From: Thermotogota bacterium ADurb.Bin062
GTDB lineage: Bacteria; Thermotogota; Thermotogae; MWEM01
NCBI GenBank assembly: GCA_002071085.1
Contig: MWEM01000006.1
Coordinates: forward strand, 10,198 to 74,197
Length of the DNA: 64,000 bases
Reading direction: 5' to 3'
Shown: piece by piece, positions 13,288 to 64,000 of the stretch
Layout of the letters: every line of letters starts with the position of its first letter
Position numbering within the stretch: the stretch's first letter is position 1
Made by a program: the position numbers and the translations under genes
The notes under the pieces: model-generated
Told to the model about the DNA's origin: nothing
The model's input: only the letters and a program-made list of their open reading frames with translations
Database searches by the model: none

Positions 13288-13445
13288 ACGAAATCGTGCA
13301 GCGCTTTCTTTTTGCAAAGCGTTATATTATAATACGAAAAAGGCAAAACGAGACTTTGAGTGTGGATATACTATCGAGGTGCGGCAAAAAAGATTAGAGG
13401 AGGAAGCTCGCCTTTTACTCTTTTTTCCGCTACGATGAGCCGCGG

Positions 13446-13737
13446 GGTTATCGCGGGGTAAGTGGTTTTTACGACCCCGCGATCCGCCCTACGCCCTTTT
13501 CAAATGCGTATCGCGCCGTCGCGAAAAGAAGGGGCGCTTACGCCGCGATGCTCTCGTGGGTTATCGCGGGGTAAGTGGTTTTTACGACCCCGCGATCCGC
13601 CCTTTGCCCTTCTCAAAAGCGTATCGCGCCGTTGCGAAAAGAATGGGCGCTTACGCCGCGATGACAAAATGGACAAAAAATCACGCGATCGATTCTGGCC
13701 TTGTTTCTTGACTACACCTTATAACTTGACACACACG
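13446..13737 (+). repeat. Mosaic repeat array A (X-Y-X-Y-Z)
   Basis: 113-bp tandem unit twice (X hairpin 13450-13483 and 13563-13596; Y 13506-13550 and 13619-13663), then Z module ~13670-13737. Confidence 0.92.
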
Positions 13738-13747
13738 AATTCGGAGG

Positions 13748-33679: not shown

Positions 33680-33983
33680 CCAAATCCCTCCTAGAAAAAA
33701 CCTCTCGAGTATACAGTAAAAGGGTATGAGAGTCAATCGAAATGACGCTTTCCCACGAAAAATCTGGCATAAATATGCGTTAATTATAGTTTACGTCGTA
33801 TGCTTGACTCTGTGAATCCATTGGCTAAATGCGTGGGTATAGTATCGAGGTAGAACAAAAAGACGGAAAGCGGAGGAGGAGAAGAAAAACGGCTCTAGTT
33901 TGAGCCGCCATTAGAGCTCATTTGACCCTTCAAGGGGTGGGTAAAGAAGTGTATTTTTCGGCCCCGCGAAGAGTACGAAGACT

Positions 33984-34188
33984 ATCGCGGGGTAACCAGC
34001 AGGCTGGCTTCTTGTGTGTTATCGCGGGGTAAGTGGTTTTCAAGACCCCGCGACCCGCCCCTTCTTAAAAGCGTATCGCGCCGTCGCTAAAAGAAGGAGC
34101 GCTTACGCCGCGATGACCTCACGGACTAAAAATCGCGCGGCCGATTCCGGCCTTGTTTCTTGAGCGCACTCCATAACTTCTCACACAC
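33984..34188 (+). repeat. Mosaic repeat array B (partial W-X-Y-Z)
   Basis: Partial W 33984-34012, X 34021-34053, Y 34071-34115, Z ~34122-34188. Confidence 0.9.
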
Positions 34189-34226
34189 GACCCATCAAAT
34201 CGCGTTCAAGCCTTTTGTCAGACTAT

Positions 34227-34472
34227 CTACATTAAGTGCTTCTTTAACTCTTCCTCGTTTTTCATATCGATTAGCTCAAGGCCCAGAGCATCAAGTTTCT
34301 CTATTGTAAGGGTCTTCAGCCTTTCGAAATATTTCTTCGAAGCCTTAGGGAATTTTTTGGATATTTGTTTCCAAAGCAATTCTTCTCTTCCCTTTTCCAT
34401 TCCTTTTTCTAAGCCTTCTTCTCTGCCTTTTTCTCTTCCTTCCTGTCTGAGCATATCCGCGATTGTTTGCAT
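34227..34472 (-). CDS. Putative internally translated small Rpn C-terminal protein (81 aa)
   Basis: AGGAG at 34480-34484 (minus strand), 7 nt before the in-frame ATG at 34472: MQTIADMLRQEGREKGREEG...KHLM. Confidence 0.6.
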   Translation of the reverse strand: MQTIADMLRQEGREKGREEGLEKGMEKGREELLWKQISKKFPKASKKYFERLKTLTIEKLDALGLELIDMKNEEELKKHLM

Positions 34473-35132
34473 CTTTTCGCTCCTTTCTTCCGATACCGTT
34501 CCCATCAGTTCTGACAATTGTTGGAAATACTCCCCGCCCATCGTTTCGAACAGGTAGATCGTACAGACCTGGAAAAACCGTTCATTCGCTTCTGTCTGCG
34601 GCAATTCCGAAATCGTCACTGCGACTCGGAACATCGTTTCTCGAATCGCTGCTTTTCCCCTGAGCGATCTCATCCTTAGTACGTCCAAATAGATTCGAAG
34701 ACGTTTCGCCCCTTTGACCTCTTCGTCTCTCAATGACGAAATTTCAAACAGTTCATATTTATAGTCTGGGATGTAGTCTTAGAAAACCACGGGGAGAATC
34801 ACTGGCAGAGGCTGCGGTACTGTCTTCTTCCATATGGAGGTCATATACCCCAGGAGCTGAAGGCTCACGTGTTTGTCAACCTTGCTTTTGTGTTCGAACA
34901 GCAGATAGACATACCCCTCTTCCTGTTGCATCTTCACCCGAAAGAGCAGATCGAAGAAGTATTCCGAGAGGTCTTTCTCGACGTAACTGTCTTTTTCTAT
35001 CGTTATCGATTCGGGATCGATTAACCGGACGATCTTCGGAGGTAGATAGTGTTGGAGGAAAGACTTCGCGGTTTCTATATCCCCCAAGACTTCTTTAAAA
35101 AATCTGTCGTGTGACTTACTGATTTTTTCCAC
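34227..35132 (-). pseudogene. Rpn/YhgA-like PD-(D/E)XK nuclease ('putative transposase') with an in-frame TAA
   Basis: HDRFFK, DLLFRV, YLLFEHKS, LQLLGYM, LPVILPVVF then TAA at 34779-34781, continuing in frame DYIPDYKYELFEIS...; AT-richer than the flanks. Confidence 0.85.
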
Positions 35133-35227
35133 GGATATCCCTCCAGAAGAAAGTCTCATCGTATCATACCTCAAAGGCGGGATTTCCAAAAAGAAAAAGC
35201 GTCTCCGCCTTTTTTTCTTTCTCAAAA

Positions 35228-35600
35228 GCGTATCGCGGGCGTCGCGAAAAGCAAAAGCGCTTACGCCGCGATGCTGCCTTCGAGAATGCTCCCAGTGAAA
35301 AGGAAAAACCTGCCAAACTAAAGTTTGGCGTTCCCAGGGCGTTCACAAGTATCTTTTCACAGTGTTTTCTGTGCCCTCCGTGCGAATTCTGTTTTTAGAT
35401 ATGCCAACTTTAAAGTTGGCGTTCCCAGAAATTCTGCCGAACTGAAGTTCGGCGTTCCAAGACGTCCCCTGAGAAAGGCCGACTGGAAGTCGGCCCCACG
35501 AAGAGAAGGGGCGCTTACGCCGCGATGACTACATAGACTAAAAACCCCGCGGCCGATTCTAACCTTGTTTCTTGATTACACCCCATAACTTGACACACAC
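35228..35600 (+). repeat. Mosaic repeat array C (Y-V-U-V-V-T/Y-tail-Z)
   Basis: Y 35228-35273; V 35312-35337, 35403-35428, 35436-35460; U ~35365-35395; T 35477-35499; TACGCCGCGATG seam to 35527; Z ~35535-35600. Confidence 0.9.
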
Positions 35601-35626
35601 CGGCAAAATCCTCGAACCCGGGACTA

Positions 35627-47967: not shown

Positions 47968-47992
47968 CGAAACCGACCTGCTCGAGCTGCCT

Positions 47993-48293
47993 GTGCGTGT
48001 CAATTTATGAGGTGCCGCCAAGAAACAAGGCCAGAATCGACCGCACGATTTTTAGTCCGTGTAATCGTCACGGCGTAAACGCCCCCTGTTTGCAAGACCG
48101 CGCGATACGCTTGAGAACGCCTTGGGAACGCCAACTTTTGAGTTGGCATATCTTGAAAAAAAGTCACACAGAGGCCTCGGAGAGTACAAAGAAGAGAGGT
48201 ATATACGAGAGCCAACACCAGGTTGATGTTTTCTCTGCGTACTCTGTGCGAAACCATCTTTTTTTGAATACGCCGAACTAAAGTTCGGCGTTC
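47993..48293 (-). repeat. Mosaic repeat array D (Z, degenerate Y, V, U, plus an inverted U-V pair)
   Basis: Z(rev) 47993-48060, Y(rev) ~48066-48110, V 48123-48147, U-like 48155-48195 and 48230-48265, V 48271-48293. Confidence 0.85.
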
Positions 48294-48320
48294 ACAAATA
48301 AGACGGGCATTCTACGGGTG

Positions 48321-53078: not shown

Positions 53079-53608
53079 GTGCGTGTCAAGTTATGAGGTG
53101 CCATCAAGAAACAAGGCCAGAATCGATCGTGCGATTTGTAGTCCATGCGCAGCATCACGGCGTAAAAAAGACAAAAGGAGGATCGCGAGACTTCGTGAGT
53201 TTCCGAAGTCAGCCCGTTGGCTTCCTCGCGATGAGCCTCACACGGTTATCGCGGCGTAAGCGCTTCTTCTTTTCGCGACGGCGCGATACGTTTTTGTACA
53301 GGTTCTGAAAAATAGGGTTCGCACGGAGGGCACAGAGAACACAGAGAAAAGATTTTTGGAAACGCCTGGAAACGCCAAACTTTAGTTTGGCATGGTTAAA
53401 AAAAAGAGAAAGGCACCAGAGCGGGTCGCGAGACTTCGTGAACTTCCGAAGTCAGCCCTCTGGTTACCCCGCGATAACCTCATACGGGCATCGCGGCGTA
53501 AAAAAGAAAAAAGGAAGATCGCGAGACTTCGTGATCTTCCTAAGTCAGCCCGCTGGCTACCCAGCAATGAACCTCTTAGTTAAGTCACCCCATAACTTGG
53601 CCCACACC
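53079..53608 (-). repeat. Mosaic repeat array E (Z, W, Y, U, V, W, W, partial reverse Z)
   Basis: Z(rev) 53079-53145; W 53181-53232, 53425-53475, 53517-53568; Y 53248-53290; U ~53305-53348; V 53367-53391; Z fragment 53585-53608. Confidence 0.92.
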
Positions 53609-60753: not shown

Positions 60754-61416
60754 TCAACCCTTTTGCGCAACCAGAAGGCCAACTAACGGGTGCACTGCGA
60801 CCAAAAGCGTCCGATCGAAATAAGGGCGAGCGGCCTCTTGCAGCCAGAAGGCATTAGACGGGAAATCCGTATCGCCCTCATCGTAGAAAACATCGTCCCA
60901 GGACTCGCGCAACCGGCTCGGATCAACGAACCACATCAGATCCGCGATGACGAGGGTGAGCGGTTGGGGCCACCGTTGCGCCAGACGTTCGAGAAAAGCC
61001 GCTTTCATCGGATCGGTCAGGTGGTGGAACGAGTAGACGCACAGCACCTTATTAGGTCGCACATCCGCCCCTTCTTCGCTTTCTATGAGGTTTTCAAAAG
61101 ACCCGCGGTAGAACCGGACATTCGACACCCCCGCCTGGTGTGCCGCTTCCCGAGCCTGACGAATCAAGGGCTCGCTGATATCGATGCCCACAACCTCTTT
61201 GCATAGGGGCGCGTAGAAGAAGGCCCAGCGACCTAAACCGGTTCCGATATCCAGCAGGGTGTTTGTCTTTTGGAGGTCCAACCAATCCGCGGCTTTCCGG
61301 CCGACGGTGGTAATGATCGAATCCGCTTCGACATTCAACTCAACGAGCGGCGAGCTCCGCTCCAGTTTTCCAAACTCTTCTTCCAAAGCCTCGCGACGAT
61401 AGGTAGGATTTGCCAT
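60754..61416 (-). CDS. Class I SAM-dependent methyltransferase
   Basis: LLDIGTGLG, GIDIS, FHHL. Confidence 0.88.
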   Translation of the reverse strand: MANPTYRREALEEEFGKLERSSPLVELNVEADSIITTVGRKAADWLDLQKTNTLLDIGTGLGRWAFFYAPLCKEVVGIDISEPLIRQAREAAHQAGVSNVRFYRGSFENLIESEEGADVRPNKVLCVYSFHHLTDPMKAAFLERLAQRWPQPLTLVIADLMWFVDPSRLRESWDDVFYDEGDTDFPSNAFWLQEAARPYFDRTLLVAVHPLVGLLVAQKG

Positions 61417-61510
61417 AAGACCTCCCGTGATCCGGTTAAGATAGACGCACGGAAGGTATTATATCAAAAAAAGGGAAGTCGGTTTCTCTGTGCCGCCGGA
61501 GCTCCGAGCA

Positions 61511-61967
61511 CTTGGGAACGCCGCGCTTCAGCGCGGTGTGCCTTGAAAAACAAGGTTCGCACAGAGGGCACAGAGAACACGGAGAGAACAAGCATCGCGG
61601 CGTAAGCGCCTCTTCTCTTCGTGGGGCCGACTTCCAGTCGGCCTGCCTCTCTGGGAACACCTGGGAACGCCAAACTTTAGTTTGGCTTGGTTTCATCTTT
61701 TCATTGGGAGTGTTCCCAAGCCAGCATCGCGGCGTACGCGCCCTTTCTTCTCGCGACGGCGCGATACGCTTTTGTTCTTTATCTTTTCCCTTTTACGAAA
61801 GATCGTATCGCGAGACTTCGTGGGCTTCCGAAGTCAGCCCGCTGGTTACCCCGCGATAACCCCACACGGGCATCGCGGCGTAAGCGCCCCTTCTCTTTGC
61901 GACGGCGCGATACCCTCTTTAGAAGGGCGAAGAAGGGATCGCGGGGTCCCTTCGGTTACCCCGCGAT
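61511..61967 (-). repeat. Mosaic repeat array F (V, U, Y-tail/T, V, Y, W, Y, X)
   Basis: V 61511-61536 and 61661-61686; U ~61545-61588; T 61621-61643; Y 61725-61769 and 61871-61913; W 61807-61857; X variant 61938-61967. Confidence 0.92.
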
Positions 61968-62050
61968 GACCTCCGAGATTCGCTCCACCCTTTTCGGGGA
62001 AAAACACAAAGTCAAAACCAGCAAAAGGTAAAAAGGTAAAAATACAAAAG

Positions 62051-63031
62051 TTAAAAGACCGTCCTGGAAAGGCGAAAGCCGAGGTAGTAGTAGCTGTAAG
62101 TCGGCGTGTAGTAGTACCGACCCGCCGCTCGGCAGTACTGCGCGTTGTGTTTCCAGCTGCCGCCCCGAATCACCCGGTAAGCGCCGAACGCGCCACTACT
62201 CGGCCCTGTCGGGTTTGTTTGCGCGGCGCTTCTGTAATTTCCATACCAGTCGTGACACCATTCCCACACGTTCCCGCTCATATCGTAGAGCCCCAGTTCG
62301 TTCGGTTTCTTCTCGCCTACCGGGTGCGTCTTCTCATCAGAATTGCCGTCGTACCACCCCACTTCGTTTAGGTCGTTGCTTCCTGCGTATTTATACCCCC
62401 TTGAGTTTTGTCCCCCTCGCGCCGCGTATTCCCATTCCGCTTCCGTGGGCAATCGATGCCCTTCTACGTTCGTGATGTCTGTCGTTACCTTTCCGCTCTT
62501 GTCCAGCAAGTTTCCCTGGCTATCGTACGCTTTCTTTATCCCTTCTCTCTCACTCAGCCAGTTGCAGTACCCGATCGCGTCGAACCAACTCACATTCATC
62601 ACCGGCCGCGTCCCGCGGCCCCATTCTTCGTCGCTTGGCTTGCTCTTCCCCGTCGACGCACAGTACGCGTCGCACTCATTGAACGTCACTTCGTACTTCC
62701 CGATCCAGTAGTCGTACGTCAGGGTCACCGTGTGTACCGGCTTTTCTTCGCTGTACTCTTCGCTGTCATTTTCCACATTCCCCATCTGGAAGCTCCCGCC
62801 TTTGACTTTGACCAGAACCGATGTGAACGAAAGAATCGTTTGAAGCTTTCCTTTCGCCTCCAGCAACTGTCGACGGCACTCTTCCGGGTCCGCGCTGCCC
62901 CGCTCTTCGACAATTTTTCCGATGATCCACTGCGTTTCATTAAAGGTGAGCTGCCGCTCCCCTTCACCATTCCACGGTATCCATAACGTCTCTTCGTTTA
63001 TCGCAAGCCTCTTCCTTTTCTTTCTCTTCAT
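62051..63031 (-). CDS. FGE-sulfatase (SUMF1/CLec-fold) domain protein; candidate DGR variable protein
   Basis: GGSFQMG, E.P.H.V, YEVT, PV.NVSW.DA..YC.W, RLPTEAEWEYAARGG, N..GLYDMSGNVWEW, RVIRGGSW, GFR. Confidence 0.92.
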   Translation of the reverse strand: MKRKKRKRLAINEETLWIPWNGEGERQLTFNETQWIIGKIVEERGSADPEECRRQLLEAKGKLQTILSFTSVLVKVKGGSFQMGNVENDSEEYSEEKPVHTVTLTYDYWIGKYEVTFNECDAYCASTGKSKPSDEEWGRGTRPVMNVSWFDAIGYCNWLSEREGIKKAYDSQGNLLDKSGKVTTDITNVEGHRLPTEAEWEYAARGGQNSRGYKYAGSNDLNEVGWYDGNSDEKTHPVGEKKPNELGLYDMSGNVWEWCHDWYGNYRSAAQTNPTGPSSGAFGAYRVIRGGSWKHNAQYCRAAGRYYYTPTYSYYYLGFRLSRTVF

Positions 63032-63060
63032 TTCTCCTCCGATAACAGATTACTCCTCGT

Positions 63061-63417
63061 GGCGTAAGCGCCCCTTCTTTTTGCGACGGCGCGATACGAT
63101 TTTGTTCGATCCTTGTTCCCGTTTTAGTTACTTGCTAATGCACGCTTACTACCAAAGATAGGATCGCAAGACTTCGTGAACTCCCGAAGTCAGCCCGCTG
63201 GTTACCCCGCGATAACCTATAAAGTCCGGCGTTCTCGAGCGCAGCATCGCGGCGTAAGCGCCCCTTCTTTTTGCGACGGCGCGATACGCTTTTGTACACG
63301 TCTTGAAAAACAGGGTTCGCACGGAGGGCACAGAGAACACAGAGGAAAAACTGGCAAACAACAGCATTCTCCCGGAAAAAGAAAAGAAATGCCGGACAAA
63401 AGTCCGGCGCTCCCAAG
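63061..63417 (-). repeat. Mosaic repeat array G (Y, W, Y, U, V variant)
   Basis: Y ~63061-63098 and 63245-63289; W 63162-63213; U ~63303-63345; V variant 63391-63417. Confidence 0.9.
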
Positions 63418-63461
63418 GTGCCCCAGGGAAACGTTCCGGTACGAAAGCCGCCGAGTTGGGG

Positions 63462-64000
63462 CTAATCCGGGGGGTAGTGGATCGTTTCTTTGATATCCCG
63501 ATAGATATGCTTCAACCTCGGGTAGATGTTGCGGTAGGCTTTGTTGTATAAGTCGCGGTAGATGCGCGCGTTTTCTGGGTTCGGGTGGTAGACCCGTCGG
63601 TAGCGGGACATCTCTCGGATCGCTTGCGCAAAGTCTTTGTGGATCTTGAGCCCGACAAACCCGATCATCGCGGCTCCTAAGGTAGAGGTTTCGTGTTCGG
63701 CCGGCTGAAAGACCTCTCGGTCGAACATATCGGCGGTGATTTGGCAGATTGGCTCGCTTTGGGCGCCTCCGCCGGACACGTGGATTTCGGTGATAGGGGT
63801 TTTTGACTGGCGCTCGATCTTTTCCATCCCGTCTATTAACCCGTAATTGATTCCTTCGACGATCGCGCGGTAAATGTGCATACGCGTGTGTACCTCCCCG
63901 AAACCGATCATCGCCCCCTTCGCAATCGGCGTTTTCACGTGGGGACTCCAATAGGGCTGGAGGAGCAATCCGTGGCATCCGGGCGGCACCTCGCTCAACC
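63462..64000 (-). CDS. FGGY-family carbohydrate kinase (3' part; runs off the right edge)
   Basis: PPG..GL...PYW, RAIVEG, SGGGAQS, QITAD, LGAA. Confidence 0.9.
   Translation of the reverse strand, partial: LSEVPPGCHGLLLQPYWSPHVKTPIAKGAMIGFGEVHTRMHIYRAIVEGINYGLIDGMEKIERQSKTPITEIHVSGGGAQSEPICQITADMFDREVFQPAEHETSTLGAAMIGFVGLKIHKDFAQAIREMSRYRRVYHPNPENARIYRDLYNKAYRNIYPRLKHIYRDIKETIHYPPD

Follow-up and report, generated by a model that had tools for sequence, protein, structure and literature searches.

The locus lies in a window of 64,000 nucleotides, the whole stretch of DNA that was analysed, on contig MWEM01000006.1 of Thermotogota bacterium ADurb.Bin062. A gene for an FGE-sulfatase/C-type-lectin-fold protein of 326 aa (the FGE gene) is located between a methyltransferase gene and an FGGY carbohydrate kinase gene, all three on the minus strand, with a mosaic array of short repeats on either side of it. 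The features, in window positions, are the following.

60754–61416, minus strand: class I SAM-dependent methyltransferase, outer flank (Pfam), with orthologues in Kosmotoga/Mesotoga relatives
61438–61467, minus strand: sigma-70-like promoter match (consensus match only) for the methyltransferase gene, immediately beyond array F
61512–61973, plus strand: array F, consisting of D-like (61512-61543), C (61544-61588), A'+F hairpin (61592-61649), D (61652-61692), A (61724-61774), B (61804-61863), A (61870-61920) and G' hairpin (61937-61973), in that order
61975–62050, minus strand: conserved 3' UTR, TTTTGTATTTTTACCTTTTTACCTTTTGCTGGTTTTGAC..., common to FGE paralogs (3'-flank alignment of the window, L097, L003 and L006)
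62051–63031, minus strand: FGE gene (PF03781, E=1e-55)
62078–62150, minus strand: variable region (VR), limits approximate (codon alignment of five same-lineage paralogs/alleles)
63032–63053, minus strand: leader of the FGE gene, with the 5' UTR and a GGAGGAG ribosome-binding site, immediately next to an A module
63054–63416, plus strand: array G, consisting of A with a degenerate head (63054-63104), B (63161-63219), partial D, reversed (63222-63236), A (63244-63294), C (63304-63348) and D, reversed (63390-63416), in that order
63391–63408, minus strand: D-module hairpin followed by ATTTCTTTTC, about 55 nt past the FGGY stop codon
63462–64000, minus strand: C-terminal part of the FGGY carbohydrate kinase, outer flank (Pfam), extending past the window; the full gene is present in L001

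The original prediction had placed the FGE gene between two repeat arrays, and this layout was confirmed. The nearest module of array F, put at about 80 bp past the stop, ends at 61973, 77 nt beyond the stop codon (62051-62053), and the first module of array G, put at about 30 bp before the start, begins at 63054, 23 nt ahead of the ATG (63029-63031). The outer flanks are ordinary genes, as had been stated. Modules A, B and C have the orientation '+' in both arrays, in agreement with the claim of same-oriented modules on both sides; module D differs, being '+' in array F and '-' in array G. A GC-skew profile, considered as a cause of module orientation, was uninformative. The D-module hairpin that follows the FGGY gene resembles an intrinsic terminator. 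Contigs under 2 kb were the only ones in 92 of the 289 methyltransferase-bearing blocks.

The N-terminal ~70 aa of the FGE protein are unique, and its C-terminal end is a DGR-type variable region. In the codon alignment of the five same-lineage paralogs/alleles, the VR follows the pattern RGGSW xxx AQ x CR.A x R xxx TPT x S xxx LGFR, where x denotes 12 hypervariable NNC/NNT codons interleaved with invariant ones. Variable sites at codon positions 1, 2 and 3 number 18, 16 and 14 in the VR versus 40, 36 and 88 upstream of it, positions 1 and 2 being over-represented among the variable sites in the VR only. The conserved 3' UTR terminates in a small CCCCGAAAAGGG hairpin (61988-61999). FGE-sulfatase proteins are discussed as a class of DGR targets in PMC4159848 and PMC3521204, and the present gene resembles them in its fold, in a C-terminal VR with hypervariable AAY-type codons, and in belonging to several paralogs that differ in their N-terminal domains and have the VR-bearing domain and the 3' flank in common. 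It thus looks like an accessory DGR-type variable-protein gene, which agrees with its earlier naming as a candidate DGR target.

A DGR core was searched for without success. Comparison of the VR with the 64-kb window by blastn (word size 7) matched the VR itself only, and the inferred TR, compared with 20 related loci, matched VRs only and no TR. The inferred-TR pattern had no matches in metagenome contigs, and three TR patterns retrieved from viral contigs either one unrelated phage TR (L094) or nothing. A Pfam scan of the ORFs gave no DGR reverse transcriptase (RT) and no Avd in the 64-kb window. An FGE-protein search of genome contigs, swamped by generic PTEAEWEY-type motifs, had no Thermotogota genome among the matches listed; a metagenome search with a conserved FGE-domain 24-mer gave at least 120 loci, and three of the 120 listed were from this lineage. 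Since no TR or RT was found, the VR signature is the sole ground for the label 'DGR target'. The VR of the window allele is unchanged in every assembly with that allele, and each paralog likewise keeps one and the same VR in all assemblies, so that nothing here points to ongoing retrohoming. The DGR may consequently be extinct, or its TR may be located elsewhere.

The arrays are not peculiar to this gene. Ten module probes gave 59 matches in the window, all of them in seven intergenic arrays, as against 7 borderline matches in 1.21 Mb of unrelated FGE-containing loci from other lineages; the clustering of modules in arrays is therefore not due to chance. None of the matches is within a real gene, the 11 that fall inside ORFs all being in array-internal ORFs without other gene support. 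About 110 kb of this lineage contain 36 distinct full A copies. Five of the seven window arrays flank non-FGE genes, mostly housekeeping, and are thus not FGE-specific; their neighbours are SRP54/ffh, a thioredoxin-domain gene, a Mur-ligase-domain gene, a glycosyltransferase/SLT pair and tRNA-Thr/Era/Dus. Stems of the form ATCGCG...CGCGAT recur in modules A, B, G and G', with other repeated segments (C, D, F and linkers) between them. Hairpin folding of modules A, B, G, D and F, each on its + strand, gave z scores of -2.2 to -3.7, and the reverse complement of module A gave -0.65. The stems of the D family covary, with fully compensated inner base pairs. The 52 window ORFs scanned against Pfam included no RT, integrase, RAYT, IS or Y1_Tnp, no Rfam family matched the arrays at the gathering threshold or at E<=1, and module A had a single chance match in viral contigs, within a coding region. 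The best reading of arrays F and G is that they are copies of a lineage-specific, genome-wide mosaic intergenic repeat family of NIME/BIME-like type.

The association of this family with FGE genes was assessed in the sampled same-lineage loci. Flanking arrays had been proposed as a check on other FGE paralogs, and P0015, a C14-PEGA-FGE gene and the P0018 operon are indeed array-flanked. Arrays occur at 7/7 junctions of four FGE transcription units versus about 7 of 65 (~11%) other junctions. A rough Fisher calculation for this enrichment, which covers a census of ~110 kb in which the FGE loci are not independent, gave p=2e-6, or p=0.005 when compared with long spacers only. The window taken by itself would accommodate a simple coincidence, in which arrays are placed at random among long spacers and the FGE gene merely has such a spacer on each side, as about 0.85 doubly array-flanked genes are expected by chance and two are seen, namely the FGE gene and a YhgA-like pseudogene. 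Against such a coincidence stand the 7/7 junctions and the array sequence shared at the 5' junction of two paralogs, and we consider it quite improbable. A purely passive model would predict a weaker enrichment at FGE junctions than the one observed, a point against the explanation favoured below. What has been found is an ordinary repeat family whose association with FGE genes, under-sampled at present, is suggestive.

The shared 5' junction consists of a degenerate A half-module that precedes the start codon of two paralogs by 24 nt; the paralog P0015 (L005, L006) has the same A-half/RBS junction at -24. Homology between paralog loci stops upstream within the A half-module and downstream 20-200 nt past the stop codon, and the arrays differ beyond these points. 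Part of an array therefore appears to have been copied along with the gene. Such travelling of array sequence with the gene, suggested by the -24 junctions, counts against the explanation that we favour below, in which the arrays are mainly local.

On the 3' side, in all FGE genes observed in this lineage and in a sister species, a conserved 3' flank that carries GC hairpins, succeeded by an A, G or B2 hairpin module, is found within ~40-240 nt of the stop codon; without exception, A modules located 3' of FGE genes and the genes themselves are on opposite strands. Retrohoming of the Bordetella phage DGR needs a hairpin/cruciform downstream of the VR. The uniform 3' arrangement and this parallel favour a role of the arrays in serving the DGR target, whereby their hairpins would provide a cruciform or transcription insulation beside the VR, for retrohoming or expression. 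However, the same modules adjoin many non-FGE genes, arrays are found upstream of FGE genes too, the searches for TR and RT were negative and the VRs are fixed across assemblies. We regard this role as very improbable.

The original prediction had further inferred that direct-oriented modules could allow the gene to be excised, duplicated or dispersed, and had proposed the search for an empty site in relatives. The exact FGE protein was found in 81 contigs (165 blocks), in an identical context in all of them. ENA ERZ795030 NODE_169 and JGI 3300010342 Ga0116252_10000168 contain the same sequence, and GCA_035384285.1 and GCA_035449405.1 are related MAGs. Part of what had been expected was observed in the related species L091, in which the slot between the FGGY and methyltransferase genes holds a GDPD gene, with no FGE gene and no arrays, as seen in a between-species comparison at 62-75% aa identity. 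The remainder was not: all 22 site-spanning long contigs keep the order FGGY-FGE-methyltransferase, with no empty or otherwise occupied site among them. No variation in arrays F and G was seen among L001, L002, L152 and L226.

The locus L226 is informative on how alleles may be exchanged. It is identical to the window over 11.4 kb, both arrays included (100%), with 0 mismatches in the 10 kb of flanks outside the gene, and its ~95 mismatches are all at nt ~265-972 of the FGE gene, this being one locus in which a polishing or assembly artefact is possible. From nt 306 to 972 the L226 gene is 100% identical to paralog P0018. The exchange boundaries of L226 and L003 fall inside the FGE domain and in a shared 3' UTR of 55-62 nt, the 3' junction of the L226 mosaic allele lying in the conserved 3' UTR (61975..62050). 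Elsewhere, the arrays of the P0015 locus differ in length by ~250-400 nt among L005, L006, L007 and L008, with flanks 99.6-100% identical, a difference that may be an assembly artefact.

These data bear on the possibility that the arrays are recombination substrates, whose direct modules would let the FGE gene be excised, duplicated and exchanged, and so seed new chromosomal sites. Every sampled same-lineage FGE unit is array-flanked, the copies of A, B and C in array F run in the same direction as those in array G and include exact direct repeats common to both (the longest being 34, 25 and 23 nt), and the A half-module is kept upstream of two paralogs. Additionally, the length variation at the P0015 locus is what would be expected of recombining substrates, the FGGY-methyltransferase slot is otherwise occupied in L091, and there is a published precedent in the Neisseria NIME arrays at variable surface-protein genes (PMC1797815). 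Against this, the 22 spanning contigs hold no empty or alternative site, F and G are unchanged in the four loci named above, mosaic alleles break within the gene or the 3' UTR and not in the arrays, the order of modules is unlike between F and G and also between loci, exact repeats reach 34 nt at most, and most window arrays flank ordinary genes. Arrays F and G have no defined ends, att sites or recombinase. The 22 spanning contigs and the variant alleles give no indication that the FGE gene has moved as a cassette, and its excision, its circles and its array-mediated dispersal are speculation. On balance we hold a substrate role to be unlikely, if not negligibly so.

Comparison with known systems places the arrays nearest to two families. 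The NIMEs of Neisseria combine dRS3 inverted repeats (ATTCCC...GGGAAT) with RS elements, flank variable surface-protein genes and have a proposed role in recombination (PMC1797815). The arrays described here share with them the long intergenic layout with many short repeat types, a short inverted repeat whose ends are constant (here ATCGCG...CGCGAT), a unit number that varies between strains (here at the P0015 locus, F and G being invariant), the flanking of variable-protein genes, and possibly a sequence divergence concentrated in the flanked gene (here in L226, one locus that may be an artefact). They differ in belonging to another phylum with unrelated sequence, in having longer stems and larger modules (45-60 nt hairpins) arranged mostly head-to-tail, in having no known associated phage recombinase, in flanking DGR-type FGE/CLec genes, and in that their link to recombination is hypothetical. 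With REPs and BIMEs the arrays have in common high-copy extragenic imperfect palindromes in mosaic clusters, with conserved linkers, between convergent or co-directional genes, and a terminator or mRNA-stabilising role is plausible in both; in contrast to these, the window modules exceed 20-40 bp, the units are direct and not alternating, and the window contains no RAYT. The stem flanks, read directly, are GGTT/AACC, GC/ACGC and GG/AACC, and CGTC occurs within the A stem only; with no GTAG/CGTC tag beside the stems, membership of the GTAG/CGTC REP superfamily was rejected. CGTC REPs are reported for Kosmotoga olearia and Mesotoga prima in PMC3733652. The K. olearia intragenic REP peptides listed in its supplement point to another stem sequence.

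The arrangement of one gene between same-orientation hairpin-forming repeats also recalls integron cassettes with their attC sites (e.g. the Vibrio VCR). Here, however, there is no IntI or attI, the arrays are multi-module instead of one attC with R''/L''-L'/R' cores, no cassettes follow one another in tandem, and the same repeats are found beside housekeeping genes and a tRNA. An integron gene cassette and a composite transposon or MITE were both rejected, since the window Pfam matches include no integrase and no IS, the arrays are heterogeneous, and neither TIRs nor TSDs surround the FGE unit. The minimal mobile elements of Neisseria are similar in that a slot between two conserved genes has a differing occupant (FGE here, GDPD in L091); the present comparison is between species and not strains, and any exchange by transformation would be hypothetical. 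From DGR systems the locus differs in that the above searches located no TR or RT and in the VRs that are identical across assemblies.

The explanation that we judge probable, by a modest measure, is that genome-wide BIME/NIME-like arrays surround an accessory variable-protein gene, that exchange occurs by gene homology, and that the arrays are probably local in effect. The arrays would be assembled from at least seven short modules, mostly hairpins with ATCGCG...CGCGAT stems, the D module being terminator-like, and the FGE gene would fill a slot of variable content, with the FGGY kinase on one side and the methyltransferase on the other. FGE genes would be single, dispensable transcription units whose spacers tolerate repeat build-up, and some paralog duplications may have carried an array piece with the gene; the enrichment of arrays near FGE genes is likely due to these two causes. 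Exchange between FGE loci, where seen, would proceed via homology of the FGE domain and the shared 3' UTR and not via the arrays, whose effect would be local, as terminators, insulators or structured spacers. Promotion of recombination, as proposed for NIMEs, is possible. In a bolder version, which seems rather unlikely to us, NIME-like arrays evolved independently in a Thermotogota lineage and preferentially bracket DGR-type genes as recombination and duplication substrates, possibly via an array-flanked YhgA/Rpn-family PD-(D/E)XK nuclease, of which L096 holds an intact homologue at 1109-2050, so that FGE genes would be dispersed as minimal mobile units and hypermutation would be coupled with shuffling.

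For practical purposes, the arrays break metagenome assemblies, are mis-called as genes and adjoin loci with mosaic or chimeric alleles, and annotators of Kosmotogaceae-like MAGs are advised to mask them. If the enrichment near FGE genes holds genome-wide, it would represent a second, phylogenetically remote case of the Neisseria pattern, in which mosaic arrays bracket the genes that a cell most needs to vary, and it would link two routes of diversification, DGR hypermutation and paralog recombination.

The window is part of the core chromosome of a Thermotogota bacterium that has not been cultured. Orthologues of its methyltransferase point towards relatives of Kosmotoga and Mesotoga, and assemblies from anaerobic digesters (ENA ERZ795030 and JGI 3300010342) contain its sequence at 99.99-100% identity. 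The FGE locus is composed of the following features:

60754-61416, minus strand, class I SAM methyltransferase, flanking the FGE gene
61512-61973, array F, in the order D-like, C, A' + F hairpin, D, A, B, A, G'
62051-63031, minus strand, FGE-sulfatase-domain protein of 326 aa (PF03781, E=1e-55)
63054-63416, array G, in the order A, B, partial reversed D, A, C, reversed D
63462 onward, minus strand, FGGY kinase, C-terminal part, flanking the FGE gene

Both FGE spacers (634 nt downstream, 430 nt upstream) are packed with repeat modules; the near end of array F lies 77 nt beyond the stop codon, and array G begins 23 nt ahead of the ATG. Of the exact direct repeats that the two arrays share, the longest measure 34, 25 and 23 nt. 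From these repeats and the module map, the original prediction was therefore correct in placing the gene between two arrays of same-orientation modules; this holds for A, B and C, while D is reversed in array G.

Five further arrays of the same modules were found in the window (13425-13740, 33960-34190, 35210-35605, 47990-48300 and 53079-53607), next to a thioredoxin-domain gene, SRP54/ffh, a Mur-ligase-domain gene, a glycosyltransferase with an SLT transglycosylase, and tRNA-Thr/Era/Dus, and one more lies just outside it, between a DapB-like gene and FGGY (contig L001). Ten module probes gave 59 matches in the window versus 7 borderline ones in FGE-containing loci of other phyla and of related genera (1.21 Mb in all); the module family is real and lineage-specific. 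Judging by about 110 kb of sampled lineage sequence, the arrays appear to form a genome-wide repeat family. No Rfam family matched them. Spurious long ORFs cross arrays (window 61512-61859 and 63217-63978; L005 1608-2450; L007 1118-1819), and public gene calls list such ORFs, which reach 280 aa and have no Pfam match, as hypothetical proteins.

Modules A, B, G, D and F are predicted to fold as hairpins, with ATCGCG...CGCGAT stems common to A, B and G. The 36 distinct copies of module A are strongly conserved in sequence, with variation limited to the pyrimidine loop. In module D, CTGGGAACGCC precedes a stem of 7 bp, and a T-rich tail is often present; the four inner pairs of this stem vary freely and are always compensated, the 100% pairing being partly by construction because copies were picked as hairpins. 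The terminator-like hairpin about 55 nt past the FGGY stop codon is one D copy. A 113-nt unit (hairpin G + module A) is duplicated in tandem at 13445-13663 (1.9 copies, 94% match), and in L006-L008 comparable A+B2 units of 123 nt recur 2-5 times upstream of the FGE paralog P0015; arrays grow by tandem duplication of two-hairpin units.

Module E/E2 (GTGTGTCAAGTTATGAGGTG ... AAGAAACAAGGCCAGAATCGA) is found only at array edges and is absent from arrays F and G. Its copies are:

13689-13735, module E/E2
34141-34186, module E/E2
35553-35598, module E/E2
47995-48040, module E/E2
53081-53126, module E/E2
53586-53605, module E/E2

Where a gene start adjoins the array, E points at it (ORF 13748, the Mur-ligase-domain gene, the glycosyltransferase gene and tRNA-Thr); the copy at 34141-34186 instead faces the 3' end of a YhgA-like gene. 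Two E2 copies are inverted at opposite ends of one array (the 53-kb array; L001 7589-7957), like terminal inverted repeats. The module might be a promoter/leader or a MITE end.

Other FGE paralogs of the same lineage are likewise flanked by arrays. P0015 (63% identical) has them on both sides in L005-L008, as does the C14-PEGA-FGE gene adjacent to it in L006, and the P0018 operon (Band_7/unknown/FGE; L097-L100) has one array upstream and another after its FGE gene. Thus 7/7 junctions of the four sampled FGE transcription units carry arrays, versus roughly 7/65 other junctions, or 5/17 counting only spacers of at least 100 nt, with denominators from a rough greedy-ORF map (Fisher p = 2e-6 for the first comparison and 0.005 for the second, on a small set of non-independent loci). 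Array length at the P0015 locus differs between samples; arrays F and G are constant. In a sister species (L096, L101, L186, L004) a conserved 3' flank with GC hairpins comes after each FGE gene, and an A-like module comes next.

Apparent sequence exchange was located in the FGE gene and its shared 3' UTR. The MAG GCA_035384285.1 (L226) equals the window over 11.4 kb, both arrays included, and differs only inside the FGE gene, which from nt 306 to the stop codon is 100% identical to P0018; the 5' switch falls inside a 14-nt identical stretch and the 3' switch inside a roughly 60-nt stop-codon/3'-UTR block common to paralogs. In contig L003 the sequence changes to that of another paralog around codon 211-227, and a different region lies downstream; other members of the FGE protein cluster contain short internal patches. 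In the 90% cluster (62051-63031 with P0122, P0129-P0134 and P0002) the mosaic alleles have an invariant N-terminal ~115 aa, with internal patches and C-termini matching other paralogs, and each occurs in one contig only, versus 81 for the window allele. The alleles are either real gene conversions or paralog-caused assembly or polishing artefacts: a junction of 14 nt speaks against a de Bruijn chimera, but reads mis-mapped in polishing would look the same. Under both readings the mosaic boundaries match the limits of paralog homology and not the arrays. Upstream, this homology takes in the RBS and enters a degenerate A half-module at -24 (window and P0015), downstream it reaches 20-200 nt, and beyond these limits the arrays differ; therefore, array sequence was co-duplicated at least once, as a unit without defined ends.

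When the window gene was aligned by codon with four paralogs or alleles from its own lineage, 12 codons of the variable region (VR) vary at positions 1 and 2 and keep C or T at position 3, and the codons between them are fully invariant (CGG GGC GGC AGC TGG ... GCG CAG ... CGG ... CCG). Variable sites upstream of the VR number 88 at the third position versus 40 and 36 at positions 1 and 2; within it they number 14 versus 18 and 16. This is the pattern that adenine-directed DGR mutagenesis leaves when the template is AAY-rich. Pattern scans and searches of the window and 20 related loci revealed no template repeat or RT. Since the exact FGE protein recurs in 81 contigs (165 blocks) and four assemblies carry the same P0018 VR, nothing points to current diversification; the results support a DGR-type VR in the predicted DGR target, but not an active remote target. 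The scan did recover a typical AAC-rich template repeat (GGCGGCAGCTGGAACAACAACGCC...AACCGCAACAAC...CTCGGCTTCCGC) at L094 11541-11610, showing that the pattern works; this repeat lies on an unrelated phage contig and is not the cognate template.

In a related organism (75% and 62% amino acid identity for FGGY and methyltransferase), FGGY, an opposite-strand GDPD gene and the methyltransferase are separated by spacers of about 60 nt, without FGE gene or arrays. The slot is variable, and the FGE gene and arrays are lineage-specific there. The empty site expected of a mobile cassette was absent from the 22 long methyltransferase contigs spanning the locus (22/22 FGGY-FGE-methyltransferase); one additional contig stops inside array F.

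A Pfam scan of 52 of the window ORFs detected neither a reverse transcriptase or integrase nor a Y1 transposase or IS. The sole mobile-element-like gene is a YhgA/Rpn-family putative transposase/nuclease (34227-35225, minus strand), split into two ORFs and probably a frameshifted pseudogene:

34779-35225, minus strand, YhgA-like N-terminal part (PF04754)
34227-34733, minus strand, YhgA-like C-terminal part (DUF4351)

It is the only other array-sandwiched gene in the window (33960-34190 and 35210-35605). In a sister species an intact homologue and a DUF559 gene are enclosed by two FGE genes that both have an A-like module after them (L096 1109-2576, L186 3412-4879). The association could be REPtron-like. 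In another Thermotogota genome (L089 1-7018, 1.7-Mb contig), an FGE / C14-PEGA / FGE cluster sits between two direct IS3-family copies (HTH_Tnp_1 + rve), a composite-transposon-like setting without the repeat arrays. Short FGE paralogs of the sister species adjoin a BREX system (PglZ, BrxL, BrxC, MmeI-like methyltransferase), a defence island, and caspase-like Peptidase_C14, PEGA, TPR-CHAT and WD40 proteins are neighbours or fusion partners of FGE paralogs, a conflict/signalling-type context typical of DGR target families:

L004 932-5176, BREX-adjoining FGE paralogs
L096 5991-11037, BREX-adjoining FGE paralogs
L186 8294 onward, BREX-adjoining FGE paralogs
L005 2492-9325, Peptidase_C14/PEGA/TPR-CHAT/WD40 context
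L006 2773-5556, Peptidase_C14/PEGA/TPR-CHAT/WD40 context
L101 2387-5672, Peptidase_C14/PEGA/TPR-CHAT/WD40 context

CGTC-type REPs are reported in Kosmotoga olearia and Mesotoga prima (PMC3733652); the modules described here lack the tag of the GTAG/CGTC superfamilies, so membership is not established. The closest published parallel is the Neisseria NIME, whose arrays differ in length, border genes for variable surface proteins and are proposed to promote recombination of the genes so flanked (PMC1797815). The predicted excision, duplication or dispersal of an array-bracketed cassette is essentially this NIME hypothesis and is compatible with the array association; no breakpoint, empty site or enzyme supporting it was found at the loci examined. 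The best-supported interpretation is that the arrays are intergenic repeats of a BIME/NIME-like family that is enriched around monocistronic accessory genes for variable proteins, in which family terminator-like D modules and structured spacers would serve local roles.
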